DNA from: an uncultured Verrucomicrobiae bacterium
GTDB lineage: Bacteria > Verrucomicrobiota > Verrucomicrobiia > Chthoniobacterales > UBA10450
Reading direction: 5' to 3'
NCBI GenBank assembly: GCA_963735805.1
Contig: CAVTMK010000002.1
Location: forward strand, 1 to 64,000
DNA: 64,000 nt
This document shows, in pieces, positions 29,812 through 62,582 of this stretch (position 1 is the first letter of the stretch; every line of letters begins with the position of its first letter). Under the pieces are notes generated by a model. That model did no database searches. It had not been told where the DNA came from and was given only the letters and a program-made list of their open reading frames with translations. Both the position numbers and the translations under genes were made by a program.

Positions 29812-29846
29812 CAAGAAACGCACAGCGTTTAGCAAACACCGCGCAG
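29812..29846 (+). promoter_or_regulatory. Island operator 1 (21-bp-period direct repeat)
   Basis: CAAGAAACGCACAGCGTTTAG CAAACACCGCGCAG; CAATAT at 29867; ATG 46 nt after the second CAA. Confidence 0.8.
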
Positions 29847-29878
29847 ACCTGTCCCCCCGGTCAAAGCAATATTGCGCC

Positions 29879-30415
29879 ATGAAATTTAAGGATGTTGCCC
29901 TCAAGCAGTCGCGGTTACGGAACCCAGTTGCTACGAAGACTCTCGGAGATGGACAGCAGCCGATCACTGTCAGAAAAATTCTCGTGCCGACCGACTTTTC
30001 TGCCGCATCGAGGAAATCTCTGTCCTACGCACTACGCTTTGCGAAAGGACTAAATTCTGAAATCACATTGCTGCATATTCTTGAGCCGGATACTCCGCTG
30101 ACATTGTCTGGGCGGCCGGCTACGGCAGCATTCTCAAAAGAGGAATTGGTTGATGCGGAAGAAGCGTTGCGTGGTTTAACCGATTCGGCCAAAGCGGCTG
30201 GCGCCGCCGCTACAAAGTCAATACTCCGCACCGGGGTTGCGACGCACGAGATCGTCGAGACAGCCAAGGAGCTCGATGTCGATCTGATTGTGATTGCCAC
30301 GCATGGTTTCAGTGGTTGGAAACATTTCGCCATCGGCAGCACGGCCGAACGCGTCGCTCGAGCCGCGCCATGCCCAGTGCTCGTCGTTCGCGAAAAGGAA
30401 CACGATTTTATCTGA
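29879..30415 (+). CDS. Universal stress protein (single domain)
   Basis: [33 protein letters not shown]. Confidence 0.93.
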   Translation: MKFKDVALKQSRLRNPVATKTLGDGQQPITVRKILVPTDFSAASRKSLSYALRFAKGLNSEITLLHILEPDTPLTLSGRPATAAFSKEELVDAEEALRGLTDSAKAAGAAATKSILRTGVATHEIVETAKELDVDLIVIATHGFSGWKHFAIGSTAERVARAAPCPVLVVREKEHDFI

Positions 30416-30420
30416 GTACC

Positions 30421-30615
30421 ATGAAGCCGAAATCGTCACTCAAGAGGCGCACAACAGGCCACTCGAATCAAAAAGCGACGAACCGATCCCGAAAGCACCT
30501 CTCACGTCCCCAATGTCAACATCGGCATGGCCGGTTCGAATTTTCATGCGGGATCGACATGACACGGGCGTTGGTCGTCAAGGAATCCATAAAAGAGGAA
30601 GAAAGAGAACACTGA
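30421..30615 (+). CDS. Possible 64-aa hypothetical protein
   Basis: ATG 5 nt after the USP stop; the ORF fills the gap to the next gene; no recognisable motif. Confidence 0.35.
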   Translation: MKPKSSLKRRTTGHSNQKATNRSRKHLSRPQCQHRHGRFEFSCGIDMTRALVVKESIKEEEREH

Positions 30616-30625
30616 CGCAACTAAA

Positions 30626-31192
30626 ATGAAAACCCAAACCCAGACAAGAAAAGGAAACGAAACGAAAACAGAAGCCGAGGCACTGGCTACACGCGTGGCG
30701 CTACATCCATTCCTCGCTGGAATGGACCATGCGCAGCTAACGTTGCTAACCGATTGCGCTATAGAGGCGCACTTCAAACCTGGCGAGATCATTTTGCGCG
30801 AAGGCGAACTCGCCAATCGCTTTTATTTGATCGAGAGCGGGAAAGTGGTGCTGCAGTCCGGGAAAGATTCCGTGATCGTAGATACAATCGGCGCCGGTGA
30901 TTTGCTGGGCTGGTCGTGGATGTTTCCTCCTCACGTGTGGCATTTCAGCGCCCGCGCTGTGGAGCCGACGGAAGCAATCTTTTTCTACGGCACAATACTG
31001 CGTGAGTATTGCGAGCGTGATCCCTCGTTAGGCTACGAGCTTTTCAAACGCATGGCGCCGATCATGCTGCGGCGGTTGCAAGCCGCACGCGATAAAATGT
31101 TGGCCATCCATCATGGGCGGGCATCGCTTGAGCCGGTGGTCTTGGAGTCGCCATTCATGGACCAGGAGCAGGATGCCCTGGAGGATTCTTGA
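30626..31192 (+). CDS. Stand-alone cNMP-binding-fold protein (no HTH)
   Basis: HPFL, FKPGEIILREGE.ANRFYLIESGKV, GDLLGWSW. Confidence 0.88.
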   Translation: MKTQTQTRKGNETKTEAEALATRVALHPFLAGMDHAQLTLLTDCAIEAHFKPGEIILREGELANRFYLIESGKVVLQSGKDSVIVDTIGAGDLLGWSWMFPPHVWHFSARAVEPTEAIFFYGTILREYCERDPSLGYELFKRMAPIMLRRLQAARDKMLAIHHGRASLEPVVLESPFMDQEQDALEDS

Positions 31193-31449
31193 AAACGCGA
31201 ACCGATGACAGGGAATACCGCGGCCTCGTTACCGATCTACTTGCCGGCGCTTCCATTCTCCGGAAAGAAGCGGCGAGATTGGCCAAAGACGCCGATTGCC
31301 TTCACGAAACCATCGACCGGATGCACGCGGCAGCCGACCGCCTCCACCGAAGAATTGAGCAAACACATATCCGAATTCGCACCTACAGATCGCTCAATCG
31401 CATTCGCAAGTCGCCCGCCCGCCGCGGCTCCGGCTGCCAACAGTCTTGA
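31189..31449 (+). CDS. Small hypothetical coiled-coil protein
   Basis: TTG start overlaps the upstream stop; heptad-like pattern. Confidence 0.4.
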   Translation: MKTRTDDREYRGLVTDLLAGASILRKEAARLAKDADCLHETIDRMHAAADRLHRRIEQTHIRIRTYRSLNRIRKSPARRGSGCQQS

Positions 31450-31491
31450 CGCTGCCATTCGTGCGATCGAAACTAGGTCTTTTCCTGATGT

Positions 31492-32412
31492 ATGGTCGAG
31501 GCCGGTGCAAGCCGAGCGGAATCGAATAAGCAACTTATCGACATGTTGCGCCGGTCTCGATTATTTCGGGATTACGAGAGTGTCTTTACTAAGGCGACTG
31601 GCCTGCCGCTGGTGCTTCGGCCGTTGGAATTTTGGCAACTCGCGCATCACGGCAAAAAACACGAAAATCCATTCTGCGCTCTCCTTGCCGAAAACCCCGC
31701 CACTCTCAGCGTTTGTCTGCAAGCGCACCAGGACATGATCGACCACACGGGATCAATTCCCCACAGTGTCACATGTCCATTTGGTCTGACCGAGACGGCC
31801 GTGCCAGTGAAGCTCGGAGCTAACGTCATTGGGTATTTGCGGATTGGTCAGGTCTTGCGGCATTTACCGGCAAAGTCAGACGCCAACAAGGTGAGTCGAG
31901 CGCTGGAGCGATGCGGGGTTCCGTTCAAAAGCGAAGTTCGCAAAGCATGGGAGAGCAATCCTCTCATGCCACCCGACAAGTACAATGCCATTGTGCGGTT
32001 GCTCTCGTTTTTTGCCGAGCAACTCTCAGGTTTGGCGAACCAACTGGTCATCGAATCGCAAAACATTGAGCCACCGCTCGTGCAAAAGGCGCGTGATTAC
32101 ATCGACAAACACAAGATGGAGCCGCTTTCTTTGGACGCCGTCGCAAAAGCAGCAGGTGCAAGCGTCTTCCATTTTTGCAAAGTTTTCCACAAAGCGACCG
32201 GCTTAAAGTTTACAGATTACGTCGCGCGGGTCCGGCTGGAAGACGCGCGCACACAGCTGCTGAATCCGAATCGGCGCATCAGCGAAGTCGCGTACGACGT
32301 TGGCTTTCAATCGCTGACGCAATTCAATCGCGTTTTCAAGCGCGTGTTCGGGCAATCGCCGAGCAAGTTTCGCGAGCGGCTCGTTGCGAACCAGTCACGG
32401 AAAATTGGATAA
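31492..32412 (+). CDS. AraC/XylS-family regulator with N-terminal PocR sensor domain
   Basis: F..ATGLP, NPFC, VC, TCPFGLTETAVPV, IGQV (PocR pattern); C-terminal double HTH ISEVAYDVGFQSLTQFNRVFK. Confidence 0.92.
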   Translation: MVEAGASRAESNKQLIDMLRRSRLFRDYESVFTKATGLPLVLRPLEFWQLAHHGKKHENPFCALLAENPATLSVCLQAHQDMIDHTGSIPHSVTCPFGLTETAVPVKLGANVIGYLRIGQVLRHLPAKSDANKVSRALERCGVPFKSEVRKAWESNPLMPPDKYNAIVRLLSFFAEQLSGLANQLVIESQNIEPPLVQKARDYIDKHKMEPLSLDAVAKAAGASVFHFCKVFHKATGLKFTDYVARVRLEDARTQLLNPNRRISEVAYDVGFQSLTQFNRVFKRVFGQSPSKFRERLVANQSRKIG

Positions 32413-32482
32413 GAGCCGCAGCTACAGCTGGCGGACGTATAACTCGCGATCGTAGGGTTTGGTATTAAAAAACGGCGATTCG

Positions 32483-33457
32483 TCATTCAATCACCCCCAG
32501 GCCTTTTCTGGTGGATTTAGCCACGCGCATACAACGCAGCTCACACTCCCCCCGTCCTAGGGCTAGCCACCGACTTTCAAATTCCACCCACCGCTGCTCC
32601 TCGGGCAGCATGGTGTGGCTCACGGGAAATTCCATGATTTCGCAGGGCGCCACGAAATGGTTTGCAATGGAATAGACGGTTTCAGCTGGAACCACCGGAT
32701 CATTGAGTCCCAGACCAATGAGCGTTTCGCAGGAAACCATCCCAGCGAAGTTCACCGCGTCGAAATAGCGGAGCACTAACATGATGTCTTCGGTGGCCTC
32801 GGCACGCTCTTTAAGGTAATGCGCGATCTCCGCACCGGAACCAGATTTGACCAGGAAATATCGCCCCTCCGCCCATCCAAAGGTCGGCACGCCGAGCACA
32901 AGAAGATCCGACGTGTCCCAAATCGCCTCCGCCATAAGGGCGAGTCCGCCCGCGAAGCTGAATCCATAAGTCAGATGTCGGGTGGTCTGTCCCGCGAAGA
33001 GATCGCGGGCCAGGTGCATCGTGCGGCCGTAGTCGCAAACCGCACCGCGCAGAATGGATGTCTCGGGCGACTCGATTCCAGTCAGCACATATCCCCAGGG
33101 CGAAGGGGCCGGGACGGCCGCCGCCGAGTGGCCAAAGCCACGAATGTCAATGCCAACCACATTGTATCCAGCCTGAGCCCATTTCCACTGGATCTCGCAC
33201 TGCGAATGGTAGCCGTGGCTATGCACAACAAGCGGGCGTGGCGCGCCATCCAGCCAGCCGAGGCTGTAGCCAGTGATTTCGACCGCGCCTAACGAATGAA
33301 ACGTGAACTGGCACAATTCAAGCGACGGGTGACTCTCGTAGGTCACGGGTATCCGGCGCACGCTTGGATCGATAGCATTCAGCTCCTCGCACGTCTTCGC
33401 CCAGAACGATTCGAAATCCGGGGGGCGGGTTAGAGGCGGGCGAATCTGGCGTTTCAT
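32483..33457 (-). CDS. Acetylxylan esterase / cephalosporin-C deacetylase-like (CE7/AXE1) hydrolase
   Basis: PPDFESFW N-terminus, HGY, DIRG, GFSFAGG nucleophile, YFDAVNFA, DPVVP, terminal His. Confidence 0.85.
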   Translation of the reverse strand: MKRQIRPPLTRPPDFESFWAKTCEELNAIDPSVRRIPVTYESHPSLELCQFTFHSLGAVEITGYSLGWLDGAPRPLVVHSHGYHSQCEIQWKWAQAGYNVVGIDIRGFGHSAAAVPAPSPWGYVLTGIESPETSILRGAVCDYGRTMHLARDLFAGQTTRHLTYGFSFAGGLALMAEAIWDTSDLLVLGVPTFGWAEGRYFLVKSGSGAEIAHYLKERAEATEDIMLVLRYFDAVNFAGMVSCETLIGLGLNDPVVPAETVYSIANHFVAPCEIMEFPVSHTMLPEEQRWVEFESRWLALGRGECELRCMRVAKSTRKGLGVIE

Positions 33458-33482
33458 GAGACGCGCACGACGGCTCGCGAGG

Positions 33483-33512
33483 TTGCAGGCGTCGTAGCCG
33501 CTCTTCTATACT
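33483..33512 (+). promoter_or_regulatory. Sigma70-like promoter of the cNMP-acyltransferase pair
   Basis: TTGCAG-18 bp-TATACT, ending 9 nt before the ATG at 33522. Confidence 0.5.
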
Positions 33513-33521
33513 CCGAACGCG

Positions 33522-34001
33522 ATGCATGTCGAACAGGTCGTCCAGATCCCATTTTTTCAAGGGCTCCCGGCCGAAGCGCTCCGGCAAGTCGCTGCCGACG
33601 CGACCGTGCTCAGATTGGAACGCGGTCGGATCCTCATGTCGCAGCATGACGCTGCCGAGCATCTGTTCTTTCTGATTTCCGGCGTGGTGCAGTTTTACAT
33701 TCATTTTCAAGGCGTGGACGATCTGCTCGTCGGGACAATCCGTGAGCGAGGCGCGTTGCTCGGCTGGTCGGTTTTCCGGAAGCCCTATCGCTACACGGTC
33801 ACTATCCGTTGCGAAGAGGATTGCCAGGTCATGCGCCTCCCTCGCGAAACCATCATGGAACTGGTGCAAACGCAGCCGCGTCTTGGCTACCTCCTGTTAA
33901 AGCGGGTTGCCGCGACCCTCGCCAATAGACTTGAACAGACGCGCGATATTCTCGTTAGCTCCGCGACCTCAGGCGTGATGCCGACGGTGGGCGCCACATG
34001 A
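33522..34001 (+). CDS. Stand-alone cNMP-binding-fold protein
   Basis: IPFFQGL, LFFLISGVV, GALLGWS; ATGA-coupled to the next gene. Confidence 0.85.
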   Translation: MHVEQVVQIPFFQGLPAEALRQVAADATVLRLERGRILMSQHDAAEHLFFLISGVVQFYIHFQGVDDLLVGTIRERGALLGWSVFRKPYRYTVTIRCEEDCQVMRLPRETIMELVQTQPRLGYLLLKRVAATLANRLEQTRDILVSSATSGVMPTVGAT

Positions 34002-35503
34002 AATCAACCATCGAACTGATTCGGGAATCACCATTCTTCGAGACCTTCCCGTCCGAAGACATCGACGCGCTTGCCGCGCACGCGGGAATGCAAAGCGTCG
34101 CGGCCGGCGACGTAATCCTGCGGGAGAACGATCCGGCCGACGCGCTCTACATGATGGTGGCTGGCCAGGTGCGCCTCTCGTTCGAGATGGCCGAGGCACA
34201 TACCAGATCGCGTACGTCAGAAGAAGATCGCATTCTTATCCGGACGCTGACGGAACCAGGGCGGATCATTGGGTGGTCGGCGATGGTCGAGCCATATCAT
34301 TATCGCGCCACGGCGACGGCCATCGAGAACACCCACCTGCTGGTATTCGAACGTTCATGGCTGGAGCGACGCGCGGAAGAGTTGCCTGAGTTTGGAGTGC
34401 AACTAATGACGCGGATCCTCTGGGTGCTCGGCAACCGGTTACGAGAGGCGCGCATCCGGCTCGTGGCCAGCCGGTATGAGGAGGAAGCGCTTGCCATTCG
34501 CGCGCTAATCGAGGAAAGCGGCTCCGAGCTCAGCGTCACATCGCCCCTGCACAAGCTGCCCATTTATCTCGAGCGTAGGCTTACTCTGTCCGATGCCTTT
34601 CAAACGCTCGAGCTGCTCCGCCACCATGGCGACCCACTTGAGGCCAGTCTCGCGCGGATGTGCCTTGAAATTCTGAAGAACGTCCGCAAAGAACTTGATG
34701 TCTATCGGCGACTCCAGCAAATCTACGAAGCGGTGAGCGCGGCGCCGGAAGACACAACGCCAGAAGAGGTGAGGCGGCGCTGCTGCGTGGAATTCTGCCG
34801 GCTGTTCGAGCGCGTCGATTACATCATTGAGGGAGAAGAAAACCTACCCGCCGAGGCGGGGCACATCTTCGTCATGAACCACCTCGCTAATCATCCCGAG
34901 AACACGTTGCCTAACGATTTCCAGCTCACGCTCGACACACATTTTGTCTCCTGCATGGTGCTCAGCCCGAAGTATGGCGAGCCGCCGGTTCGCGTCATTC
35001 GCAAGTCGAACCCTCACGAATACGGCCACCAGAAGTATTTCGATCGTCTGGGATACATCTATGTCTATGCAAAACATGTCGATGAAGACGAACGCAACCC
35101 GCAGTTGCTGGCGGAGCAGCGGCGGCGGGTTTTCCTAGAAACCGCCGCCCGCTGCCTTCGCGACGGTCGGAACCTTGTAATCTGTCCCGAAGGAGCATCC
35201 ACCTCGACCGAACGCTCCCCGCTGCCGTTTAAAGCGGGGGCTTTCCGCCTCGCGGCCTTCGTCGACTCCGAACCATTGATCGTACCGGTAGTGGTGGCGC
35301 ATTTCGATCGCAAGATCACGCGGACCACTCTCATCGCGTGCGTGCACAAACCCTTCCTCCTGTCCGATCACGTTGCGAAGCCGGTGCAGGATGAAGCGCT
35401 CTTCGCGTTCATCGCCGAGTTCGGGGAGAAAATGCGCGCCTGGGTGCACGACGCTGCCGCTCGCGCCGCGGTCGGGGCGACACCTCGCTCCAGCATCTCG
35501 TAG
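33998..35503 (+). CDS. cNMP-binding domain fused to a PlsC-type acyltransferase domain
   Basis: N-terminal SPFFETF...ILREND.ADALYMMVAGQV...IIGWS; C-terminal IEGEENLP, IFVMNH, ICPEG, PFKAGAFRLA, IVPV. Confidence 0.85.
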   Translation: MKSTIELIRESPFFETFPSEDIDALAAHAGMQSVAAGDVILRENDPADALYMMVAGQVRLSFEMAEAHTRSRTSEEDRILIRTLTEPGRIIGWSAMVEPYHYRATATAIENTHLLVFERSWLERRAEELPEFGVQLMTRILWVLGNRLREARIRLVASRYEEEALAIRALIEESGSELSVTSPLHKLPIYLERRLTLSDAFQTLELLRHHGDPLEASLARMCLEILKNVRKELDVYRRLQQIYEAVSAAPEDTTPEEVRRRCCVEFCRLFERVDYIIEGEENLPAEAGHIFVMNHLANHPENTLPNDFQLTLDTHFVSCMVLSPKYGEPPVRVIRKSNPHEYGHQKYFDRLGYIYVYAKHVDEDERNPQLLAEQRRRVFLETAARCLRDGRNLVICPEGASTSTERSPLPFKAGAFRLAAFVDSEPLIVPVVVAHFDRKITRTTLIACVHKPFLLSDHVAKPVQDEALFAFIAEFGEKMRAWVHDAAARAAVGATPRSSIS

Positions 35504-35650
35504 CGCTGGCCTCGCGCTTATCGACACAACGCAATCACGACGGCGAAGACCAGGTATAGGCCAATCAGGATGGTCCAACCTACGCGATGCAATCGTGCAT
35601 CGGCAATCGGCCTAACGACTAATCGTTTCGTCGATCTTGTTCTTCCTATA

Positions 35651-35734
35651 ATTTTTCTTCACCTCGTTTCCGATGAATCGAAGTTCGTGACAAGAAGCGA
35701 GCTGGTGATCGACGGCGGCTACACGGCGCGGTAG
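35651..35734 (+). pseudogene. C-terminal remnant of a short-chain dehydrogenase (SDR)
   Basis: Reads IFLHLVSDESKFVTRSELVIDGGYTAR*, matching the classical SDR end (LASDE..FVTG..LVIDGG), with no upstream body. Confidence 0.75.
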
Positions 35735-35956
35735 AGGCCCCTTAGTAACCACCCAATTCGTTGATTTCCGACGACGTTCCTGATGGAGAGCAAGAGGGAA
35801 CAGCCGGGCTTCTTTCGAAAAACTGTTTAAGGGGCCAGTCCGGCGAGGATGTGTGTCAAACGACCGACGAGGAAATTCGGATACTCCCATCCAAGCCACT
35901 AACCGCCAAATCGTTTTAGCGGTAATGGACGCTGGGTCGCAGTTCGATGCGACTGC

Positions 35957-35991
35957 CAAGAATTGCGCTGTTCTTCGCAAGATTTGCCGAG
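35957..35991 (+). promoter_or_regulatory. Island operator 2
   Basis: CAAGAATTGCGCTGTTCTTCG CAAGATTTGCCGAG; CAAATT at 36013. Confidence 0.8.
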
Positions 35992-36041
35992 CGGGATTGC
36001 CACGTCTGATCTCAAATTGAAATTAAGAAAGGCAAAATAAC

Positions 36042-36539: not shown

Positions 36540-36568
36540 AACCGCAAACGGAGACAACGGAGCAACCT

Positions 36569-37440: not shown

Positions 37441-37508
37441 TTCGCACAGGTGCCTCAGAAACAGTTCAAACGTAATCAACGAAAACAAGATGAGAATGGA
37501 TAAACCTT

Positions 37509-38850: not shown

Positions 38851-38885
38851 CAAGAATTGGACAATCCTTCGCAAAATCCGGCAAG
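38851..38885 (+). promoter_or_regulatory. Island operator 3
   Basis: CAAGAATTGGACAATCCTTCG CAAAATCCGGCAAG. Confidence 0.75.
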
Positions 38886-38931
38886 TGATTGGCGGAAGGC
38901 ATTGTCTATTTGCGTTCGAGCGGCACGACAA

Positions 38932-39468: not shown

Positions 39469-39503
39469 CAAGAAACGAACTACTTTTCACAAGCAATGAC
39501 ATG
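39469..39503 (+). promoter_or_regulatory. Island operator 4
   Basis: CAAGAAACGAACTACTTTTCA CAAGCAATGACATG; CATTTT at 39524; ATG at +46. Confidence 0.8.
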
Positions 39504-39535
39504 CTGACCTCTGCGAAACCAAGCATTTTCGACTC

Positions 39536-41910: not shown

Positions 41911-41941
41911 ACTAACCTTTCGTCAGCGCGGCGCCCAACTG

Positions 41942-41976
41942 CTCATCAATCTTTGTGAGAATCTGTTCAGATTCTG
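41942..41976 (-). promoter_or_regulatory. Island operator 5b (minus strand)
   Basis: CAGAATCTGAACAGATTCTCA CAAAGATTGATGAG on the minus strand; ATG at +45. Confidence 0.65.
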
Positions 41977-41991
41977 CGCCGCGCTCGCGCC

Positions 41992-42026
41992 CAAGAAATG
42001 AGCAGCATTTAGCAATTCGCGCTGAG
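41992..42026 (+). promoter_or_regulatory. Island operator 5
   Basis: CAAGAAATGAGCAGCATTTAG CAATTCGCGCTGAG; CAATAT at 42046; ATG at +45. Confidence 0.8.
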
Positions 42027-42057
42027 CCAGCGCTTTTTGCCGGCGCAATATGGCTCA

Positions 42058-43729: not shown

Positions 43730-43764
43730 CAAAAAATGTGCAGTTGTTCCCAAAATTCGGCGAG
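43730..43764 (+). promoter_or_regulatory. Island operator 6
   Basis: CAAAAAATGTGCAGTTGTTCC CAAAATTCGGCGAG. Confidence 0.72.
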
Positions 43765-43851
43765 TCTGGTCAATGAGAATCGGCTTCACTGTTCGCACAC
43801 CCAAACACAAACCATAAAAGTGCAAGATGCAATGAAGGTCGATGAAACCCC

Positions 43852-50023: not shown

Positions 50024-50058
50024 CAATATTTGCGCAGTTAAAGCCAAGTTGCGGTTAT
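50024..50058 (+). promoter_or_regulatory. Island operator 7 (more degenerate)
   Basis: CAATATTTGCGCAGTTAAAGC CAAGTTGCGGTTAT; CATGCT at 50079. Confidence 0.6.
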
Positions 50059-50105
50059 CGCCGAAGCCCGTGCCGAACCATGCTTCGACTGACAAAGGAG
50101 GCATT

Positions 50106-50288: not shown

Positions 50289-51085
50289 GACCAACAGGAG
50301 CGACCACTCAGGCTGCCAAAGACCACGCGGCGCCCTTCCTCGCATCGAGGTGGACAATCGCGTTGATCGCTGCGCTGCTGCTTTCAATCGGCGCATCTTC
50401 GTTTCTGTACGCTATCCACTTGAAATCGGAAACCGGTGAAAAGAGTCGCACCGGCCAGAGCGAAAAAATGGGAAAGCTTGGCGAGGTCGATCGCGGCCCG
50501 CGCGGCAAGAAAGAGATCGCGCTCACGTTCGATGCGGGAGCTGAAGCCGAGTGCTTTGACGATTTGATCACAGCCCTCGCGAACACACATGCCAGCAGCA
50601 CGTTCTTCATAACGGGAAGATTCGTCCATGACCATTCAGACTGCACCGCGGAAATCACAAAGCATGGTCACGAAGTTGGAAATCACACCTGGAGTCATCT
50701 GAATTTGACCCAGCAACCGGATAATGTGGTGCGCGATGAAATCATGCGCGCCGAAGGCGCCATTTTTCAAGCCTCCGGGCAAACTCCGAAACCCAGATTC
50801 CGGGCCCCGTACGGAATTCGGGATGAACGCGTCTTGAAAATTGCGAACAATCTCGGTTACCGATCAATCCAGTGGACCCTCGATAGTCTCGATGGAGTCG
50901 AGCCTGCAAAGAGTTCGCAGTTCCTCATCGATCGGATCACCAGCAAAAGCGACGCCGAACTCGACGGGGCAATCATTTTAATGCACGTAGGCGTTCGCAG
51001 CACTGCGGACGCGTTGCCGGCAATTATCGCCAATTTGCAAGGGCGGGGTTTCCATCTCGTCACGATCTCCGACCTTTTGCAATGA
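50285..51085 (+). CDS. Polysaccharide deacetylase (CE4/NodB), membrane-anchored
   Basis: LTFDAG, NHTWSH, FRAPYG, IILMH. Confidence 0.88.
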
Positions 51086-51771
51086 AAACCTCATCAACTT
51101 TGCGTCTCCGCGCTCGCCAACGGCTTATTCGTAGAATTCTGGTTCCGGTCGACTTCTCGGACTGTTCACTGGCAGGTCTAAGGTATGCGGTTCGATTCGC
51201 CAAGAAGGTGGGTGCACGCATCATCGTCCTGCACGTCACTGATCTCGGCCCGGTTATGATGACCAGTGGCGGCGGCGATTACGATTCGTCGACTTATATG
51301 GAAGCGGCGCGGCGTCGATGTGGCGATCAGATGCAAGCTTTTCTGAAGCGCGTCGATTGCGGTGGTGTTCCAGTCGATACATCGGCGGTTGCCGGATACT
51401 GCCCGGTCGCGATTTATGAAGCCGCTGCAAAGAAACATGCCGACTTGATTATTATCTCGACGCATGGGCGGACTGGTTTGCGTCGTGCGCTGATTGGCAG
51501 CGTCGCTGAAGGCACAGTGCGACATGCCGCGTGCCCGGTGCTCGTTGTGCCGTCGTTTACGGGTGAGCGGAAAAGAGGCGGTAAACAAAACCGCGCGCCG
51601 GCGAGGCCTCGCAACAGTTGGCAAAAAGTCACGCACATAGCGAAGTCAAATCCATCTGCGACCGCTCAGGGAGCACCGAAACCGAAACAAAGCGGGCGAG
51701 CAAGAAATGCGCGGCAAATCGCAATCGCTGCGAAGCGTAAATTTGCACGCAGCGCAAGAGTTCAAACATGA
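51082..51771 (+). CDS. Universal stress protein (single) with basic tail
   Basis: ILVPVDFS...STHGRTG...GSVAE; about 70-aa basic extension. Confidence 0.9.
51701..51735 (+). promoter_or_regulatory. Island operator 8 (within the USP tail coding sequence)
   Basis: CAAGAAATGCGCGGCAAATCG CAATCGCTGCGAAG; ATG at +46 (51768). Confidence 0.78.
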
Positions 51772-53237: not shown

Positions 53238-53272
53238 GGATGTTCGGCTCGAATGCCGAATCCAGCGACACG

Positions 53273-54311: not shown

Positions 54312-54346
54312 CAAGAAATGCGTGGAAATTCGCAATAACCGCGAAG
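54312..54346 (+). promoter_or_regulatory. Island operator 9
   Basis: CAAGAAATGCGTGGAAATTCG CAATAACCGCGAAG; CAAGCT at 54366. Confidence 0.8.
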
Positions 54347-54426
54347 GCAAAAGAACGTCGTTGGTCAAGCTAGACTCGACGTCAACAAACGGGACTAGTT
54401 TGGTTGCTGTTTAGAAAAGGATATTT

Positions 54427-56916
54427 ATGAAGAGCGGAGCCTCAGGGCGACAGTTGAAGGATTGGCCAAAATCCGACGCAGAAATGGAGCAGCTTGCCGG
54501 CAGCGTTACGCACAGCACTCCAGGTGGTCGCTACATCAAATGGTTTCGCGAAATCGGGATCCAAGATGTGCCGCTGGTCGGCGGCAAGACGGCGTCGTTA
54601 GGCGAAATGTTTCGCGAACTCGCGCCGAAGGGAGTCAAAGTGCCGGATGGCTTTGCCATCACCGCTGTCGGTTACTGGCACATTCTCCACGAGACTCAAC
54701 TCGATCAATTTATCGAGACACAACTTCGCGGCTTGGAAATTAACGATGTAAAGCAGTTGCAAAAACGCGGCGTGGCCATTCGTGACGCGGTTCTTGCCGC
54801 GAAGCTGCCCACCGATTTGCGTCGGGAGATTTTGGACGCCTACGATCAGTTATGCCGGGACTCCGACGGGCCCATTTCCGTTGCAGTCCGAAGCAGCGCG
54901 ACAGCAGAAGATTTACCCGAGGCCAGCTTCGCCGGCGCCCAGGAAACTTTCCTCAACGTGACCGGGCACGATCGCGTAATTGAGGCGTGCCGCCGCTGTT
55001 ACGCCTCGCTTTTCACTGACCGTGCAATCTCATATCGGGCTGAGCGAGGGTTCGCCCATGACAAGGTCGGTTTGTCAATCGCCGTGCAGACGATGGTGCA
55101 CTCGGACGTCGGTAGTTCGGGCGTTATTTTTACAATCGATACCGAGACTGGATTTCGCGACGCAATTTTGATCAACGCTTCATATGGACTTGGAGAAAAT
55201 GTCGTAAAGGGCTTCGTGAATCCGGACGAGTTCTACGTGTTTAAAACAACGTTGAAGACCGACTTTCGTCCGATTCTGCAAAAGATTGCAGGCAGCAAAG
55301 AATTAAAACTTGTTTACGATACAGTTGCTGCCGGCGGCACGCGCAATATTCCAGTCCCGCCCCAGGATCGCCGCCGCTTCTCGATTTCGGACGACGAAAT
55401 CCTTCAGCTCGCGCGGTGGGCCTGTATGATCGAAGAACACTACAGCGCAAAAAACGGTCGACCGACTCCAATGGACGTCGAGTTCGCCAAGGATGGCCGC
55501 ACTGGTGAATTATTCATTCTTCAGGCGCGGCCCGAAACGGTCGAATCCCGGAAGAACACGGCCGTAATGGAACATTACCGCCTCAAATCGCGTGGCTCAA
55601 TTTTGATCCAAGGACGAAGTGTTGGAATGAAGATCGCGGCCGGGGTAGTGCGAGTGATAGCCGATCCAAAACATCTCGATGATTTTCAGGAAGGCGAGAT
55701 TTTGGTCGCCGACAAAACCGATCCGGATTGGGAACCGATCATGAAACAAGCGGCGGCGATTGTGACCAATCGTGGCGGCCGCACCTGTCATGCGGCAATC
55801 GTCAGTCGCGAACTCGGAGTTCCGGCAATCGTTGGAACGGAACACGGCACAGAATTGTTGCGTAATGGACAAAGCGTCACCGTCTCATGCGCCGAGGGCG
55901 ATATCGGTTTTGTTTACGAGGGCAAGTTGCCGTTCGAAGTGCAGCGCACGAATCTGAAAGACCTCTCGCGGCCGCGGACAAATGTGATGATGAACGTCGC
56001 GAACCCAGAGGAAGCATTCGCGCTGTCGTTTATTCCGAATGATGGCGTCGGCCTGGCGCGCGAGGAGTTCATCATCAGCAACTACATTAAAGTGCATCCG
56101 TTGGCGTTGCTCGATTACGCAAAAATCACCGATCCCGAAGTCAAAGCGAACATTGACCACTTGACGGTCGGTTACGACGACAAACCGCAGTTCTTCGTGG
56201 ATAAACTTGCGCAAGGTGTGGCCATGATCGCTGCCGCATTCTATCCGAAGGATGTGATCGTGCGTTTGAGTGATTTCAAGACAAACGAATATGCAAATCT
56301 GATTGGTGGCCGCGCTTATGAGCCCATTGAAGAAAATCCGATGCTCGGTTTCCGCGGCGCGTCACGCTATTACAATGAAAGATATCAGGCAGGTTTCGCA
56401 CTCGAATGCCGCGCCATGAAAAAAGTCCGCGATGAGATGGGCCTGACGAATTTGAAACTGATGATTCCTTTCTGCCGAACTGTCGATGAAGGCCGCAAGG
56501 TCATCGCAGAAATGCAGAAGCACGGCCTCAAGCGCGGCGAGGCTGGCCTCGAGATTTATGTAATGTGTGAAATTCCCAGCAACGTCATTCTAGCCAACGA
56601 GTTCGCGGAGATTTTTGATGGCTTCAGCATCGGTTCGAACGATCTGACTCAACTCATTCTTGGCGTGGATCGCGACAGCGAGATCGTGGCCGATATTTTC
56701 GACGAACGAAACGCCGCTGTGAAAAAGATGATCTCTGACGTCATTGTAGTCGCACGCGCAAAACAACGAAAAATCGGCATCTGCGGCCAAGCGCCCAGCG
56801 ATTATCCTGAGTTCGCTCAATTTTTAGTGGAGCAAAAAATCGACAGCATTTCGTTAAATCCCGACACTGTCCTCCAAACCACGCGAGCGATTCTCGAAAC
56901 GGAAAAAGAGCGATAA
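54427..56916 (+). CDS. ppsA: Phosphoenolpyruvate synthase
   Basis: VGGK.ASLGEM, AVRSSATAEDLP.ASFAG, GGRTCHAAI phospho-His, FSIGSNDLTQ. Confidence 0.96.
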   Translation: MKSGASGRQLKDWPKSDAEMEQLAGSVTHSTPGGRYIKWFREIGIQDVPLVGGKTASLGEMFRELAPKGVKVPDGFAITAVGYWHILHETQLDQFIETQLRGLEINDVKQLQKRGVAIRDAVLAAKLPTDLRREILDAYDQLCRDSDGPISVAVRSSATAEDLPEASFAGAQETFLNVTGHDRVIEACRRCYASLFTDRAISYRAERGFAHDKVGLSIAVQTMVHSDVGSSGVIFTIDTETGFRDAILINASYGLGENVVKGFVNPDEFYVFKTTLKTDFRPILQKIAGSKELKLVYDTVAAGGTRNIPVPPQDRRRFSISDDEILQLARWACMIEEHYSAKNGRPTPMDVEFAKDGRTGELFILQARPETVESRKNTAVMEHYRLKSRGSILIQGRSVGMKIAAGVVRVIADPKHLDDFQEGEILVADKTDPDWEPIMKQAAAIVTNRGGRTCHAAIVSRELGVPAIVGTEHGTELLRNGQSVTVSCAEGDIGFVYEGKLPFEVQRTNLKDLSRPRTNVMMNVANPEEAFALSFIPNDGVGLAREEFIISNYIKVHPLALLDYAKITDPEVKANIDHLTVGYDDKPQFFVDKLAQGVAMIAAAFYPKDVIVRLSDFKTNEYANLIGGRAYEPIEENPMLGFRGASRYYNERYQAGFALECRAMKKVRDEMGLTNLKLMIPFCRTVDEGRKVIAEMQKHGLKRGEAGLEIYVMCEIPSNVILANEFAEIFDGFSIGSNDLTQLILGVDRDSEIVADIFDERNAAVKKMISDVIVVARAKQRKIGICGQAPSDYPEFAQFLVEQKIDSISLNPDTVLQTTRAILETEKER

Positions 56917-56920
56917 ATCT

Positions 56921-57847
56921 GTGAAAGAGAAAAACGAATCTCTGATCGTCTGTGGAACCGATTTTTCCGCGATGGCGACAGAAGCGGTTGACCTTGCAGC
57001 GGCGATGGCGAAACGCCTAGACACAAGACTTGTCCTTGTCCACGTCGACGAATCTTACGGAATGGCTTCAGTGGATTCCAAATTGTTCGACGCGGCTGTT
57101 GCGCACGGACGTCCTGAGCTCAATCAGATGGCGGATCGATTGAGGGAATTGGGAACTGACGTCGAAGTAAGGCTCCTTTGTGGGTCTGCGTTTGATAAAT
57201 TGGTAACAGTCGCAAACAAATCCCGAGCACGGCTCATCGTCGTTGGCGCAGTAGGACATAGTCTCGTTAGGCGATTGCTTGTCGGAAGCGTAGCTGAACG
57301 CACGGCTGAAACTTCGCCGATTCCCACCCTGGTGGTGCGTCCTGGTGGAAGGCTTCTCTCCTGGATTCAAGGTGAGCACGCTTTGAAAATTCTGGTCGGA
57401 TACGATTTCTCTGCTGCCAGCGATGCCGCTTTAGATTGGCTGAATCAGCTCCGAAATATTGGCAAATGCCAAATCACCGTACTCTACAGTAATTGGCCTC
57501 CGGACGAAGCGCGTCGGCTGGGATATGAAGGACCGCTGCCCCTGGCGGATAATCCGAAGGCGATTCAAAAGAATCTTGAGCGTGATTTGAAGAAACGCGT
57601 TGCGACGTTTCTGCCGAAGCAACAAGTAAACGCCATCGTAGAGCCCGGCTGGGGAAATCCGGAAGGATACTTGTTCGAAATGGCTGGCGGCCAACATATG
57701 GATCTGATCGTCGTCGGAACTCATCAGCGACGTGGCTTGGGCGGCATTCTTCTGGGGTCGGTTTCGCGTGCTGTCTTACATCACGCAAAAATGTCAGTGG
57801 CGGTCGTCCCTCCGGTTGAAAACGCCATGCGAAAATCAAAGGAATGA
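56921..57847 (+). CDS. Universal stress protein (tandem, divergent)
   Basis: CGTDFS...GSVAE and VGYDFS...GSVSR. Confidence 0.9.
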   Translation: MKEKNESLIVCGTDFSAMATEAVDLAAAMAKRLDTRLVLVHVDESYGMASVDSKLFDAAVAHGRPELNQMADRLRELGTDVEVRLLCGSAFDKLVTVANKSRARLIVVGAVGHSLVRRLLVGSVAERTAETSPIPTLVVRPGGRLLSWIQGEHALKILVGYDFSAASDAALDWLNQLRNIGKCQITVLYSNWPPDEARRLGYEGPLPLADNPKAIQKNLERDLKKRVATFLPKQQVNAIVEPGWGNPEGYLFEMAGGQHMDLIVVGTHQRRGLGGILLGSVSRAVLHHAKMSVAVVPPVENAMRKSKE

Positions 57848-58389
57848 GAACCAGACCATCAGGGCAGCGTCGTCGCGCCCGAATGGACCTACAACGTATA
57901 TTGGTGCCAGTCGATTTCTCGGAATCGTCCGCGGGCGCATTACGCCATGCCGTGGAACTCGCTGTGGAATCGGGCGGCTCGCTGATAATAGTTCACGTCG
58001 TTCCGTCTGACTACGGATGGTTGGGGATCGGGCGTGACGAATCACGCGATTTAGATCGCTCATTGCAGCGGCAGGCGGCAAATCGATTGGAGGGCTTGGC
58101 AGATGAACATGTAGACCACAAGGTGGTTGCGGAACTGGAGGTTCGTATCGGCCAGCCGGCAACACAGATCGCTGCTGCAGCGACTGACTCAAAATGCAAT
58201 CTGATTGTCATGGCGACGCATGGACTTACCGGGCTCGACCGGTATCTCATCGGCAGCGTTGCCGATCGGGTCGCGCGACTAGCTCCTTGTCCGGTGCTTC
58301 TAATCCCGCCTGTGAGGCGCCCGATTGTTGGAGCACTTCCATCCCAAACTGTCCTTCGGTTTAAACACAAACCCAAGCGGGGTCGCTGA
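57844..58389 (+). CDS. Universal stress protein (single)
   Basis: [27 protein letters not shown]. Confidence 0.9.
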   Translation: MRTRPSGQRRRARMDLQRILVPVDFSESSAGALRHAVELAVESGGSLIIVHVVPSDYGWLGIGRDESRDLDRSLQRQAANRLEGLADEHVDHKVVAELEVRIGQPATQIAAAATDSKCNLIVMATHGLTGLDRYLIGSVADRVARLAPCPVLLIPPVRRPIVGALPSQTVLRFKHKPKRGR

Positions 58390-58411
58390 GTCTGCGCAAG
58401 AATCTGCGGCC

Positions 58412-61135
58412 ATGCAACCCGTTGATGCTCCTTGCTGGCATCATACGAGCGTGGATGAGGTCGTCCGATGTTTTAGAACCAATCTTGCGAATGGCCTTTC
58501 GCTCAGTGAAGTCAGATCACGAGCAAAAGAATATGGACCAAACAAGCTGGCCGAACCGCGACCTCGGCGTTGGTTGTCAAAGCTGCTTAGCCAGTTCAAT
58601 CAACTGGTTCTTTGGATTCTAATCGCCGCGACACTTCTGTCGGCAGTCCTGGGCGACTGGCTGGAAGCCGGGGCGATTCTGGCAATCGTTCTTTTAAACG
58701 CGCTGCTCGGATTTTTTCAGGAACAAAAAGCCGAGAAGGCCCTTTCTTCGCTCAAAGAGCTTTCTTCTCCTGTTGCCAAGGTAATCCGGGACGGCTCACT
58801 GCGCATTCTTCCAGCGGAAACGCTCGTTCCGGGAGACGTCGTTGAAGTTGAGGCAGGCGACCACGTCCCGGCAGACGCACGGCTGGTTACAACATTCGCA
58901 TTGAAGATGCAGGAAGCCGCTCTCACTGGTGAATCGACGCCCATTGAAAAGGACAGCGTTGCAGTGTTACCCCACGATGTTGGTATTGCTGAGCGCGCCA
59001 ATGTGGTGTTCACAGGAACCACGGTCGTCGCCGGTAAAGGTCGTGGCGTAGTCACAGCGATCGGAATGAATACCGAATTGGGTCGCATCGCCGGGTTCCT
59101 GATCACGGAAAAACGCGAACCGACACCGCTCCAGAAACGATTGGCGGAGCTGGGTCGCGTGCTTATTATCGCCTGTCTCAGTCTGGTGGCTGTCATTTTC
59201 GTTTTAGAGCTGCTCCGCGGCGAAAGTCTGGCGCAAACCTTTCTCATGGCGGTCAGCCTGGCGGTGGCGGCGGTGCCCGAAGGATTGCCGGCGGTGGTGG
59301 CCATTGCCCTTGCCCTGGGTTTGCAGCGCATGGTTAAGCGAAACGCTCTCATCCGCCGATTGGCCAGTGTCGAAACGCTCGGCTCGGTGACCGTGATCTG
59401 CTCTGACAAGACAGGGACGCTAACACGCAACGAAATGATGGTTACGGAAATCGTAACCGGCACTGGACGGTACAAAGTTACTGGAACCGGTTATGGGCCG
59501 GATGGAGAATTCGTTGCGCTTGCGGTCGGACCAGACGGCGATAGCGGACCTGCAAACCCGCGAAATGACCCTGACCTCGCAATGGCGTTGACCATCGGCA
59601 TCTGGTGCAACAATGCGAGACTGGATCCGCCAAGCGATCATGATGAGCACTGGAGAATCTTCGGCGACCCAACTGAGGGCGCTCTCATCGTCGCGGCGAG
59701 AAAGGCCGGGGTCGAGCGTGGCCCCGATTGCTCCATCATTCACGAGATCCCGTTCGACTCAACTCGCAAATTGATGTCGATCGTGGTGAAAAACGCGCAG
59801 CGGCGAGCTGTCATTTATACCAAGGGTGCGCCCGAATTACTTCTGGAACGCTGCGCATTTGAACGCCGGGATGGAAAGATCGTGTCGTTGTCACCGGCGC
59901 GCCGCGAGAAACTACTACGGCAAAGCAGCGACATGGCCAACCGTGCGCTGCGATTACTTGCGCTTGCCTATCGAGATCTCGACAACGATTCACCGGAATA
60001 TCGAGAACAGGATTTGGTTTTTGCGGGGCTGGTTGGAATGATTGATCCGCCGCGCGAAGAAGCGCGTACAGCGGTCGCGAAATGCCAGTCGGCAGGCGTA
60101 CGTCCGGTAATGATGACCGGCGATCATCCAGCAACTGCCCTTGCTGTTGCGCAAGCGTTGAACGTTGCAAGCGACGCTGAAGCTCGGATCACCGGTTTGG
60201 AACTTGATGCACTCTCCGAGCAGGAGTTGCTAGCGAGGGTGGAACGTCTTGCCGTATACGCGCGTGTTTCGCCAGAGCACAAGCTAAGAGTCATACAAGC
60301 GCTCAAAGCGAACGGCCAGGTTGTCGCGATGACGGGCGACGGCGTGAATGACGCGCCTGCAGTCAAGATGGCCGACATCGGAATCGCGATGGGGATTACT
60401 GGTACGGACGTGACGAAGGAGGTGTCGGACATGGTTCTGACAGACGACAACTTTGCTTCCATCGTCAACGCAGTTGAAGAAGGGCGAGGCATCTACAACA
60501 ACATCCAGGAGTTCGTCCATTATCTCCTTTCCTGTAACATTAGCGAAGTCGCGCTGGTCCTCTTTGCGGCTCTTGTCGGATGGCCCGTTCCGCTGCTTCC
60601 AATCCAGATACTTTGGATCAATCTTATCACCGATGGATTACCAGCGCTGGCGCTTGCCATGGAAAAACCGGAGCCGAACATAATGAAGCGCCGCCCGCGG
60701 CCACCAAGGGAGCCGTTCTTTACCCGCCGGCGTGGATCGCAAATTCTTATTCACGGCTTTGTTCTGTCGGCGGTAAACATTGGAGGGTTCGCCTATTCCT
60801 ATATTAGAGCGGGGAGTTCGTATGCGCAGGCGACGGCCTTCTACATCACAACCTTCGCCCAGCTTTTCTTCTCCTTCGCTTGCCGCAGTCAGCGTTACAC
60901 GCTTCCGCAACTTGGCGTCTTTACGAATCCGTACCTTCTCGCAGCGATTGTCCTTTCTGGGATATTGCAGATTTCCTTGCTCTGGTTTCCGTTAACGCGA
61001 AACGTATTTTTCCAAACCGCGCCACAATTTGGCTCTGATTGGTTGATCATTCTTTTGCTGGCGCTCGCTCCGGTGTCATTGGTCGAGATCACGAAAATTG
61101 TCCGTCGTCGATACGGGTGCAAAAGCGTGATCTGA
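58412..61135 (+). CDS. P2A-type cation (Ca2+-like) P-type ATPase, CtpF-like
   Basis: TGES, VPEGLP, DKTGT, GDPTE, LSCNISE, QILWINLITDGLPALAL. Confidence 0.92.
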   Translation: MQPVDAPCWHHTSVDEVVRCFRTNLANGLSLSEVRSRAKEYGPNKLAEPRPRRWLSKLLSQFNQLVLWILIAATLLSAVLGDWLEAGAILAIVLLNALLGFFQEQKAEKALSSLKELSSPVAKVIRDGSLRILPAETLVPGDVVEVEAGDHVPADARLVTTFALKMQEAALTGESTPIEKDSVAVLPHDVGIAERANVVFTGTTVVAGKGRGVVTAIGMNTELGRIAGFLITEKREPTPLQKRLAELGRVLIIACLSLVAVIFVLELLRGESLAQTFLMAVSLAVAAVPEGLPAVVAIALALGLQRMVKRNALIRRLASVETLGSVTVICSDKTGTLTRNEMMVTEIVTGTGRYKVTGTGYGPDGEFVALAVGPDGDSGPANPRNDPDLAMALTIGIWCNNARLDPPSDHDEHWRIFGDPTEGALIVAARKAGVERGPDCSIIHEIPFDSTRKLMSIVVKNAQRRAVIYTKGAPELLLERCAFERRDGKIVSLSPARREKLLRQSSDMANRALRLLALAYRDLDNDSPEYREQDLVFAGLVGMIDPPREEARTAVAKCQSAGVRPVMMTGDHPATALAVAQALNVASDAEARITGLELDALSEQELLARVERLAVYARVSPEHKLRVIQALKANGQVVAMTGDGVNDAPAVKMADIGIAMGITGTDVTKEVSDMVLTDDNFASIVNAVEEGRGIYNNIQEFVHYLLSCNISEVALVLFAALVGWPVPLLPIQILWINLITDGLPALALAMEKPEPNIMKRRPRPPREPFFTRRRGSQILIHGFVLSAVNIGGFAYSYIRAGSSYAQATAFYITTFAQLFFSFACRSQRYTLPQLGVFTNPYLLAAIVLSGILQISLLWFPLTRNVFFQTAPQFGSDWLIILLLALAPVSLVEITKIVRRRYGCKSVI

Positions 61136-61138
61136 ATC

Positions 61139-61498
61139 ATGAAAACAGCCGAAGCGCGAGCTGAGCCTTCTGCGGAAACAATGGGGTTGGAGCGTCGTCC
61201 GGTTCTCAAGACAATGGTTGCGCCGAGGAAAATCAGTTGCGTTAGACGCGTGGTCAAAGAGCACAGGACGGATGAAACGGAGTTTTCGATTCTGATCAGC
61301 GATCACTGGCAGGGCAAGGGATTGGGCTCGGCGCGTCTGAGGTTGCTCGTGCAACTCCGACGCAGAGACCGCCTAGGGCGAATCATTGGCCATATTTCAG
61401 CTGAGAACATCACAATGAAAACCGTGAGCCAAGAAGCCGGGTTTGATCTGCATTTCGATCGAAGCGATAGCGAATGGGGGGCTGAGATGAATTTGTGA
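61139..61498 (+). pseudogene. Truncated GNAT domain resembling the C-terminus of acyl-CoA-ligase/GNAT (Pat-type) acetyltransferases
   Basis: EFSILISDHWQGKGLG and ENITM...GF; the N-terminal part of the fold is missing or degenerate. Confidence 0.6.
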
Positions 61499-62481
61499 AG
61501 GTCGCCGTCTTTGGCACCAGAAGTTACGATCGTGAATTTCTTGGCGCGGCAAATCATTCGCGTCACGAATTACATTTCTTTGAGCCGCACTTGAACGAGC
61601 AAACGGCCGGCCTCGCAGCCGGATTCAATGCCGTTTGCGTTTTTGTCAATGATCAGGTTGGCGCGGCAACGATTACAGCGTTGAACTCGTTAGGCGTACG
61701 TCTGATTGCGCTGCGTTGCGCCGGATACAACAATGTCGATCTAAGTGCCGCTAAGAAACATGGCATCACCGTCGTGCGCGTCCCCGGATATTCGCCTTAC
61801 GCAGTGGCGGAGCACGCGATCGGTTTGGTGCTGGCGCTCGATCGCAAACTGCATCGCGCATCCAACCGGGTGCGTGAAGGCAATTTCGCGCTCGACGGTC
61901 TGCTCGGGTTCGATCTCCACGGCAAAACTGTTGGAATCATCGGCACCGGAAAAATTGGGACTGTCGTGGCGCAAATTCTCACTGGCTTTGGTTGCCCGAC
62001 ATTGGTATTCGATCCGATTCCGAACGAGAAATGTCGATCCTTGGGAGCCCGTTACGTCGAGTTGGAAGAGCTCCTCGCGCAGTCCGACATCGTCACTTTA
62101 CACTGCCCGCTTACACCGGAGAACAAGCACATGATCAACGCCGCTGCGATCGCAAAGATGAAAACCGGAGTGATGCTGATTAATACCAGCCGGGGTGCGC
62201 TGCTAGACACGGTGGCCGTAATCGAGGCCCTAAAGAGCGGCAAGATCGGATATCTCGGTCTTGACGTTTACGAAGAAGAGGAACAGATCTTTTTCGAAGA
62301 TCGCTCTGGTCTAATCATTCCCGATGACGTGTTCGCGCGGCTATTAACTTTCCCAAATGTCATCATTACGGGTCACCAGGCCTTCTTTACGCGGGAAGCT
62401 TTAGAAAACATCGCGGCTGTTACCGTACACAACCTCACGAGCTTCGAAAATGGACTGAAGCTTGAAAATCAGCTTATTTGA
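61495..62481 (+). CDS. ldhA: D-lactate dehydrogenase (D-2-hydroxyacid DH)
   Basis: [44 protein letters not shown]. Confidence 0.9.
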
Positions 62482-62547
62482 GGACGCTCGGGACGAGACG
62501 ACGGCAACAGTGCTGGTTCGCGGCTGATCACCGCCCCGACAGGAGCG

Positions 62548-62582
62548 CAAGAAATGACCAATCTTTGCCAAGCCAGGACAGG
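62548..62582 (+). promoter_or_regulatory. Island operator 10
   Basis: CAAGAAATGACCAATCTTTGC CAAGCCAGGACAGG; CACACT at 62603; ATG at +46. Confidence 0.8.

Follow-up and report, generated by a model that had tools for sequence, protein, structure and literature searches.

Gene content and putative operators of the island

The window, that is, the whole stretch of 64,000 nucleotides analyzed here, comes from an uncultured Verrucomicrobiae bacterium, and its 24-64 kb portion is an island of stress-related genes. The 42 ORFs of the island that were scanned encode 8 universal stress proteins (usp), CBS, DUF2267, phosphoribosyltransferase (PRTase) and erythromycin-esterase family proteins, three proteins with cNMP-binding domains, P-type ATPases, a receiver-only protein, an alcohol dehydrogenase (ADH), pfkB, ppsA and a D-2-hydroxyacid dehydrogenase. 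The initial annotation recorded 11 copies of a tandem motif upstream of these genes, in which CAA-N5-G occurs twice with a period of 21 bp, and each of the 11 was found where it had been placed. The composition described for the half-sites is also exact on recount: the first half reads CAAGAAWYG in 8 of the 11, G occupies position 9 in all 22 half-sites, and the second half has AG at positions 13-14 in 8 of the 11.

The first operator (29812..29847, + strand) precedes an operon that starts with a single-domain universal stress protein (29879..30415, +; Pfam Usp), followed by a stand-alone cNMP-binding-domain protein (30626..31192, +; Pfam cNMP_binding only, with no HTH found) and a PocR(GAF-fold)-AraC protein (31492..32412, +; Pfam PocR and HTH_18), hereinafter the 31492 protein, which we propose as the binder of the operator. 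A candidate -10 element, CAATAT, lies at 29867-29872, and the ATG at 29879 appears to be leaderless. The 79 loci that carry the closest 31492 orthologues (53-89% identity; mostly records titled Ca. Udaeobacter, Chthoniobacterales or Verrucomicrobiae), taken together with the window, yield 80 sequences, of which 57 contain the cluster of this usp and 58 that of the cNMP protein; the latter, co-located with the regulator, might modulate it. Additional cNMP-binding-domain proteins without an HTH are encoded at 33522-34001 and 33998-35503.

The operator at 35957..35992 (+) is leadered, with the ATG at +85, and lies ahead of genes for CBS (36042), DUF2267 and host-attachment/baeRF12 proteins. It is followed by the sites at 38851..38886 (+), ahead of a 133-aa ORF (38932) with no Pfam match, and at 39469..39504 (+), ahead of a tandem-domain usp (39536, apparently leaderless) and an ABC ATPase. 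Two operators stand back to back at divergent promoters (41941-42027), a layout that recurs in many relatives with offsets of ~22-38 bp: the one at 41941..41976 on the - strand, with CAG as the first triplet, precedes a 64-aa ORF (ATG 41910), and the one at 41992..42027 (+) precedes a usp (42058, apparently leaderless) and the phosphoribosyltransferase gene. The site at 43730..43765 (+) is followed by a usp (43852), the erythromycin-esterase family gene, genes of unknown function and a P-type ATPase. A weaker operator (50024..50059, +) precedes a 60-aa hydrophobic ORF (50106), a polysaccharide deacetylase and a usp; comparable sites precede similar ORFs in two of the related loci (L009 and L014). 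The remaining sites are at 51701..51736 (+), ahead of the receiver-only protein (51768, apparently leaderless), a Zn alcohol dehydrogenase and pfkB, at 54312..54347 (+), ahead of ppsA, two usp, a P-type ATPase, GNAT and the D-2-hydroxyacid dehydrogenase, and at 62548..62583 (+), ahead of a 167-aa protein (62615, apparently leaderless) that has no Pfam match and is conserved, with its cluster in 24 of the 80 sequences. The sites thus lie upstream of island genes, as had been claimed, but the one at 51701 is in the tail of an ORF (51082-51771) and not in a clean intergenic region.

No operator was found between 24000 and 29800 of the window. This part includes a P-type ATPase that occupies two consecutive ORFs (24955-27475; 379 and 463 aa), apparently a split gene, which adjoins ppk2 and an MFS gene and is close to dnaA (22262-23755).

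Specificity of the putative operator

The operator can be written as gCAARAAWYGC..AG-N6-gCAA-N5-GC.GAG, a direct repeat with a 21-bp period that ends ~33 bp before the predicted start. In a leave-one-out test, 9 of the 11 sites score 20-37 bits; the sites at 41976 (11.6 bits) and 50024 (6.3 bits) are weak. With a matrix derived only from the sites of relatives, 10 of the 11 are the top 10 matches of the 3.52-Mb genome and the site at 50024 ranks 12th. The initial annotation had named matches in random sequence at a similar density as evidence that would count against the motif; the full matrix is specific, given that the reversed matrix of the relatives has 0 matches of at least 20 bits in the genome compared to 10 real ones, and that the matrix of the 11 window sites yields 0 and 2 such matches in two Markov-simulated genomes. 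For the bare core (two CAA-N5-G at 21 bp), the genome outside the island gives 205 matches, compared to 129-206 for other periods, and the 24-64 kb island gives 12, compared to 1-8. The bare core is thus common by chance genome-wide; specificity comes from the flanking columns.

A probable 12th site lies just past the window (G000:C2:65753, minus strand, 19.5 bits) and two more flank a paralogue of the regulator at C2:1184647, so that the regulon in this genome is limited to the island and these three sites. Further matches at C1:236106, C2:55448 and C2:1634963 are within long ORFs and were dropped as chance. Other readings of the motif were rejected. It shows partial symmetry (AAA at 5-7, TTT at 17-19), yet the strongest columns repeat directly, not in inverted orientation; the aligned sites have no GG at -24, as a sigma54 promoter would; and the search for an RNA element gave no Rfam match and no tRNA.

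Promoter layout

The ATG lies 66-67 nt after the first C of the operator in 6 of the 11 window sites; in one of these, the 41976 site, GAAAGG precedes the ATG, and so five window sites look leaderless. The same spacing dominates in the 79 loci, where the ATG is at +66..69 in 151 of the 241 unique sites. A start codon falls at +64..71 in 180 sites, 176 of which have no Shine-Dalgarno sequence; the other 61 include 34 with both a Shine-Dalgarno sequence and an ATG at +76..99. The high share of leaderless starts across the regulon suggests that leaderless translation may be common in this lineage.

Beyond the matrix, the sites of the 79 loci have A at +57 (71%) and T at +61 (79%), and these positions would correspond to the two key bases, A-11 and T-7, of a sigma70-type -10 element. 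Of the 180 near-start sites, 98 place the T 7 nt ahead of the start. When sites are picked by the bare core alone (361 matches), the same two positions stand out (A57 62%, T61 67%), along with A34 (78%) and G35 (84%). With the ATG as +1, we infer half-sites at about -68..-54 and -47..-33, which agree to 1-2 nt with the positions of CphR, described as bound at -69..-55 and -49..-35 (PMC6205950). The proximal half would then overlap the -35 region, ending near -33 if the leaderless ATG is the predicted start.

Conservation in close relatives

The window matrix finds 248 sites of at least 18 bits in 73 of the 79 loci, compared to 1 for the reversed matrix and 0 for ten permuted matrices, and only the period of 21 bp is enriched (264 matches versus at most 6 for each of the periods 17-20 and 22-26). 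Conservation upstream of orthologues, on which the initial annotation had staked the motif, is borne out: among the 64 orthologous genes with enough flank, 48 have a same-strand site at most 2.6 kb upstream of the regulator, usually ahead of the usp-cNMP pair. Divergent orthologues with other neighbours (20 loci inspected) often have a site directly behind the regulator stop; one of them (L099) has only weak sites.

At the genus level (57 genomes), at least 4 pattern sites are present in 24 of the 26 genomes with an orthologue and in 2 of the 31 without one (reversed pattern, 0-2), a co-occurrence that is confounded by the joint inheritance of regulator and island, by fragmented assemblies and by the non-independence of kin. 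Two genomes with an orthologue (G059 and G075) have only 1 and 2 sites. Conversely, G002 has 13 pattern sites, several of 38-44 bits, and keeps the usp-cNMP genes; the regulator is missing from its usual locus without a remnant, and no PocR domain was found in the assembly, which is 90% complete, 8% contaminated and in 200 contigs. Relocation to unassembled DNA, recent loss or binding by the single-domain AraC protein of this genome would each explain this.

Some relatives have over 20 such promoters, compared to about a dozen in the genome studied here, and in close relatives the targets further include PFOR, PFK, hsp20 and a phosphoketolase-like gene. Several relatives also encode single-domain AraC HTH proteins of 125-190 aa, similar to SoxS/MarA, 11 of 12 of which have an operator directly upstream (L044:11097, L080:14142, L036:13288, L047:2315, L029:12542 and 7 more, with another such locus at L117:1237-1677); these proteins are a possible second regulatory tier. 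No single-domain AraC paralogue was found in the genome studied here. Orthologues with 74-75% identity are present in MAGs titled Nitrospirota, Alphaproteobacteria and Gemmatimonadaceae (L053, L057 and L068, respectively), through either mis-binning or island transfer.

The candidate regulator and its sensor domain

The 31492 ORF encodes 306 aa, with PocR (PF10114) at 63 bits (cut-off 23.9) and HTH_18 at 86 bits (cut-off 33.6); its atlas matches are PocR at 97-100%. In the AF2 model (pLDDT 95.9), the C-terminal domain resembles the AraC-type double HTH of AdpA (Z 16.1, rmsd 1.9, 110 aligned residues), with recognition helices at ~225-236 and ~275-286, and the N-terminal domain has the GAF fold (NifA GAF, Z 9.9, rmsd 2.4, 106 aligned). 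No solved structure that matches the sensor domain by sequence was found.

The sensor domain contains Cys62, Cys75, His79 and Cys95 (Cys3+His) and lacks the fourth Cys that is typical of the family: among the 139 representatives spanning this part, all four of Cys62, Cys72, Cys75 and Cys95 occur in 110, and the 31492-type pattern in 14. In a quick tree, the loss of Cys72 coincides with the gain of His79 in one 14-row clade nested among the four-Cys proteins (SH-aLRT 98). Residues 72, 75 and 79 are on one face of the helix 69-86 in the AF2 model. A four-ligand centre is suggested by how widespread the fourth Cys is and by the His that takes its place on this helix face where it is lost. Distant PocR-AraC proteins from other classes, for which no cco link is shown, have the Cys62/75/95 triad too; on its own, the triad is therefore no mark of oxygen sensing.

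Only two PocR domains were found in the genome. The paralogue (G000:C2:1184647-1185528; L001:12624-13676) is 43% identical to the 31492 protein and keeps one of the four sensor Cys; operator variants lie on either side of it, preceding hsp20 and a 57-aa ORF. This paralogue is widespread in the genus, including genomes without the island.

Link to the cbb3 oxidase in other families

Within the order, 11 loci with distant homologues of the regulator were annotated: in 4 of them the homologue faces the cbb3 oxidase operon, and in one it follows hemE-hemN-hemY-hemH. Across 151 genomes of the phylum, the regulator family is present in 24, ccoN in 29 and both in 15, in 13 of which the regulator is at most 4.1 kb from ccoN. 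All 15 have an operator or a variant at the cco promoter, compared to none of 6 genomes of the same class that have ccoN and lack the regulator family, 3 of them from one genus. The unchanged matrix detects the site in 10 of the 15 (10-37 bits) and a box-A variant accounts for the other 5. Specifically, the Udaeobacter matrix gives 23-37 bits in all 7 genomes of the family f19 and 22 in G027, as well as 19.4 in G165 and 10.2 in G206, even though in these two the regulator is 37 kb away or on another contig. The best score in the six control genomes is -5.7, or 1.9 without box A (3.2 kb); the PocR domain was not found in five of these and was found weakly in the sixth (G153). In 8 ccoN genomes of other classes, no site was found at cco; these operons seem to start further upstream and therefore were omitted from the control count.

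The variant, found in five genomes of the family f18, differs in box A, keeps the TGC..AG core and, in four of the five, lies ~66-70 nt before an ATG. A pattern derived from these sites matches once per genome, a circular result because the variant was picked by eye, and hence one that shows only uniqueness per genome.

The cco and hemN genes are typical FNR/FixK targets. Genome-wide, five f19 genomes have 18 sites (control, 1), ahead of cco (5), hemN (3), usp (3), acetyl-CoA hydrolase/transferase (2), multiheme cytochromes (2) and three other genes, namely, an EF-G-like gene, an FG-GAP protein and one unknown. In the genome studied here, the usp targets are present, but no ccoN scores above the cut-off. 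In f18, the cbb3 operon begins with a conserved ORF (L128, L129, L130:2524-3015, L132 and L151) that is ~160 aa long, rich in Cys and without a Pfam match, and ORFs with similar N-termini lie divergent from the cbb3 operon in f19.

The box-A changes are accompanied by changes in recognition helix 3. The sequence of this helix is S[VAT]F[HY]FCK in proteins whose box A is CAA, whereas box A departs from CAA in f18 (STRHFCK), f2 (SNQY) and f4 (HPTYFSE), and both helix 6 (S[LI][ST]QFNR) and box B stay similar; this covariation covers three clades and was judged by eye, with no statistical test. The assignment of helix to box follows XylS. For CphR, each sub-motif is described as meeting one HTH (PMC6205950).

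A candidate low-oxygen regulon

Our best overall explanation, to which we assign a probability of about 0.7, is that the island belongs to an FNR/FixK-like low-oxygen regulon run by the 31492-type AraC protein, possibly an Fe-S sensor. The initial annotation had proposed one activator for a stress island. The proposed co-ordination of these genes is supported; the generic stress label is not, because the cbb3 oxidase and hemN link in relatives points to low oxygen. That link had escaped the initial annotation, as had the leaderless layout of the promoters, the Cys-bearing PocR/GAF sensor domain and the fact that the operon of the regulator has a site of its own. The idea that an AraC-type activator uses a XylS-like tandem operator is strengthened by the 21-bp period, the two sub-boxes per half, the predicted -35 position and the tracking of the site with the 31492 family. 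Judging from sequence and comparative data, the 31492 protein very probably binds the repeat and the regulon is probably induced at low oxygen; an Fe-S cofactor in the sensor is a possibility to which we give slightly less than even odds.

Under this explanation, two subunits of the 31492 protein would bind head to tail on the repeat, with box A (gCAA) and box B (C..AG) of each half contacted by the two HTHs of one subunit. From its position over -35, the proximal half would recruit the sigma70 RNA polymerase to promoters with weak -10 elements, and transcription of many of them would start on the ATG. The GAF-fold PocR sensor, with four conserved Cys (Cys3+His here), would most simply hold a metal or Fe-S centre and activate when oxygen falls. 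The regulon would be a low-oxygen survival set that, in the genome studied here, consists of the 8 usp, CBS, PRTase/esterase, ADH, pfkB and ppsA, and would be extended by PFOR, hsp20 and PFK in close relatives and by the cbb3 oxidase, hemN, usp and multiheme cytochromes in other families. Because the regulator operon carries its own site, positive feedback is likely. With the same signal ahead of classic low-oxygen genes in relatives, the activator may do the job of FNR with unrelated protein parts. A more ambitious version, which we hold still more tentatively than the cofactor, is that this is Verrucomicrobiae's own FNR: an AraC-family activator with an oxygen-labile Fe-S cluster in the PocR domain (Cys4, or Cys3His in the Udaeobacter lineage) that would control the whole low-oxygen programme through the 21-bp tandem operator, with the Cys-less and single-domain paralogues as further tiers.

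The alternative that survives best, although we consider it unlikely, keeps the 31492 protein as the binder and assigns oxygen sensing elsewhere: the Cys site would hold Zn or a small metabolite, such as a fermentation alcohol or diol, or the protein would be a FixK-like second tier under a FixLJ-type system. Salmonella PocR is described as responding to 1,2-propanediol (PMC11264322; PMC13725321) and PocR has been termed a hydrocarbon sensor (PMC13725321, PMC5847659, bioRxiv 10.1101/2021.08.30.458270), which is consistent with a metabolite ligand, as is the presence of the Cys triad in the PocR-AraC proteins seen in general; here, the targets are oxygen genes and not genes of diol catabolism, and the fourth Cys of most representatives, with His in its place here, hints at a four-ligand centre. 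As for a second tier, genes for a PAS kinase and FixJ/NarL-type proteins adjoin homologues in L100, L110 and L114, a FixL-like ORF is present in 6 of the 79 loci, FixL-like/NarL-like pairs are encoded also in the genome studied here, and the paralogue lost 3 of the 4 Cys, yet has sites nearby. Against this, two-component genes are absent from 73 of the 79 loci.

It is considerably less probable that some other protein, that is, a single-domain AraC paralogue, a response regulator, a Crp-family protein or an alternative sigma factor, binds the operator and that the PocR-AraC gene is a mere member of the regulon. The many strong sites of G002, together with its one single-domain AraC protein, and the position of the regulator operon behind a site would fit this possibility. 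Neither a single-domain AraC paralogue nor a Crp/Fnr HTH was found in the genome studied here, where three weak matches to the latter read as MarR and GntR types; Crp-like genes are present in only 4 and NarL-like genes in only 6 of the 79 loci; the site tracks the 31492 family at cco promoters and varies with its helix 3; and the separate A-11/T-7 element argues against a sigma-factor motif. Finally, chance matches or remnants of duplicated promoters have a negligible probability, since, common as the bare core is, the full-matrix controls give 0-1 matches against 248, period 21 alone is enriched and other families retain the site in front of unrelated genes.

The FNR/FixK box itself was rejected as a real signal: TTGAT-N4-ATCAA is not enriched (2 matches with at most 1 mismatch, 2.68 expected), and with up to 2 mismatches it occurs in 1 of the 11 promoters and was not found in the 7 f19 cco loci. 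One genome that lacks the regulator has a perfect FNR-type box far ahead of cco (L157:2049), probably by chance. The Crp-family genes in G096, G200 and the 4 loci have 2-3 Cys in frame and lack an FNR-like Cys cluster, and G027, G150 and G182 yielded no Crp-family gene; the gene that adjoins the Crp-family gene in G096 and G200 resembles what we take to be an Fe-S repair protein.

Ca. Udaeobacter and its kin, largely uncultured, are among the commonest soil bacteria. For the question of how they cope with waterlogged, low-oxygen soil, a candidate master regulator, an operator and a target list can now be named. Should the more ambitious version hold, one-component oxygen sensors would gain a new class and PocR domains a cofactor; if the Cys hold an Fe-S cluster, FNR would have evolved convergently on the AraC scaffold. 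The helix-3/box-A covariation, in turn, is a natural test set for DNA recognition by AraC proteins. Full-text searches of the openly accessible literature gave nothing on a PocR-AraC oxygen regulator, the gCAA operator or Udaeobacter promoters. The type of operator is known; the regulator, the regulon and the likely role as an FNR analogue appear to be undescribed.

Comparison with known systems

The closest counterparts are the dimeric AraC activators XylS, BenR, CphR and MekR, which share the 21-bp direct repeats with two sub-boxes each and the C-terminal double HTH; their proximal copy is at -35, as is predicted here. The period is the same as in the XylS and MekR sites (PMC4514859, PMC5481539, PMC6449761), and the XylS operator is given as a TGCA-N6-GGNTA-N6 repeat (PMC4514859), from which gCAA-N5-GC..AG differs in box B. 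Unlike the XylS-type systems, the one described here has a GAF-fold PocR sensor, would serve about a dozen mostly leaderless promoters instead of one catabolic operon and does not target aromatic catabolism.

Salmonella PocR, the cob/pdu activator, combines the same PocR sensor with an AraC HTH and has its box just upstream of -35 (PMC11264322), a likeness drawn from the domains and the box position. The 31492 family is distinguished by its four-Cys or Cys3His pattern and oxygen-linked regulon, and no pdu or cob genes were found among the annotated neighbours or targets. The single-domain AraC genes behind the motif in relatives are reminiscent of the SoxR-SoxS and MarA cascades, with the difference that an AraC protein already occupies the first tier here and that the single-domain tier is absent from the genome studied.

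CBS, PRTase/esterase and pfkB are shared with the mycobacterial DosR regulon, as is autoinduction, which is likely here. The gene content of the island resembles the Burkholderia lxa locus, a low-oxygen island of ~50 kb also rich in usp (six USPs), as well as the DosR and Anr regulons, with USPs and hsp20 in common with DosR (PMC12071387). In contrast to the heme kinase and NarL-type regulator of DosR, the candidate regulator here is a one-component AraC protein, and neither a NarL-type regulator nor a sensor kinase was found among the 42 island ORFs scanned.

The FNR/Anr/FixK regulons share cco, hemN and usp, with sites ahead of these genes in f19. FNR and FixK are a Cys-bearing sensor and its Cys-poor counterpart, similar to the 31492 protein and its paralogues. 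The 31492 protein itself combines a GAF-fold sensor with an AraC HTH, as opposed to the Crp/Fnr fold, and its putative operator is a direct repeat in place of TTGAT-N4-ATCAA.
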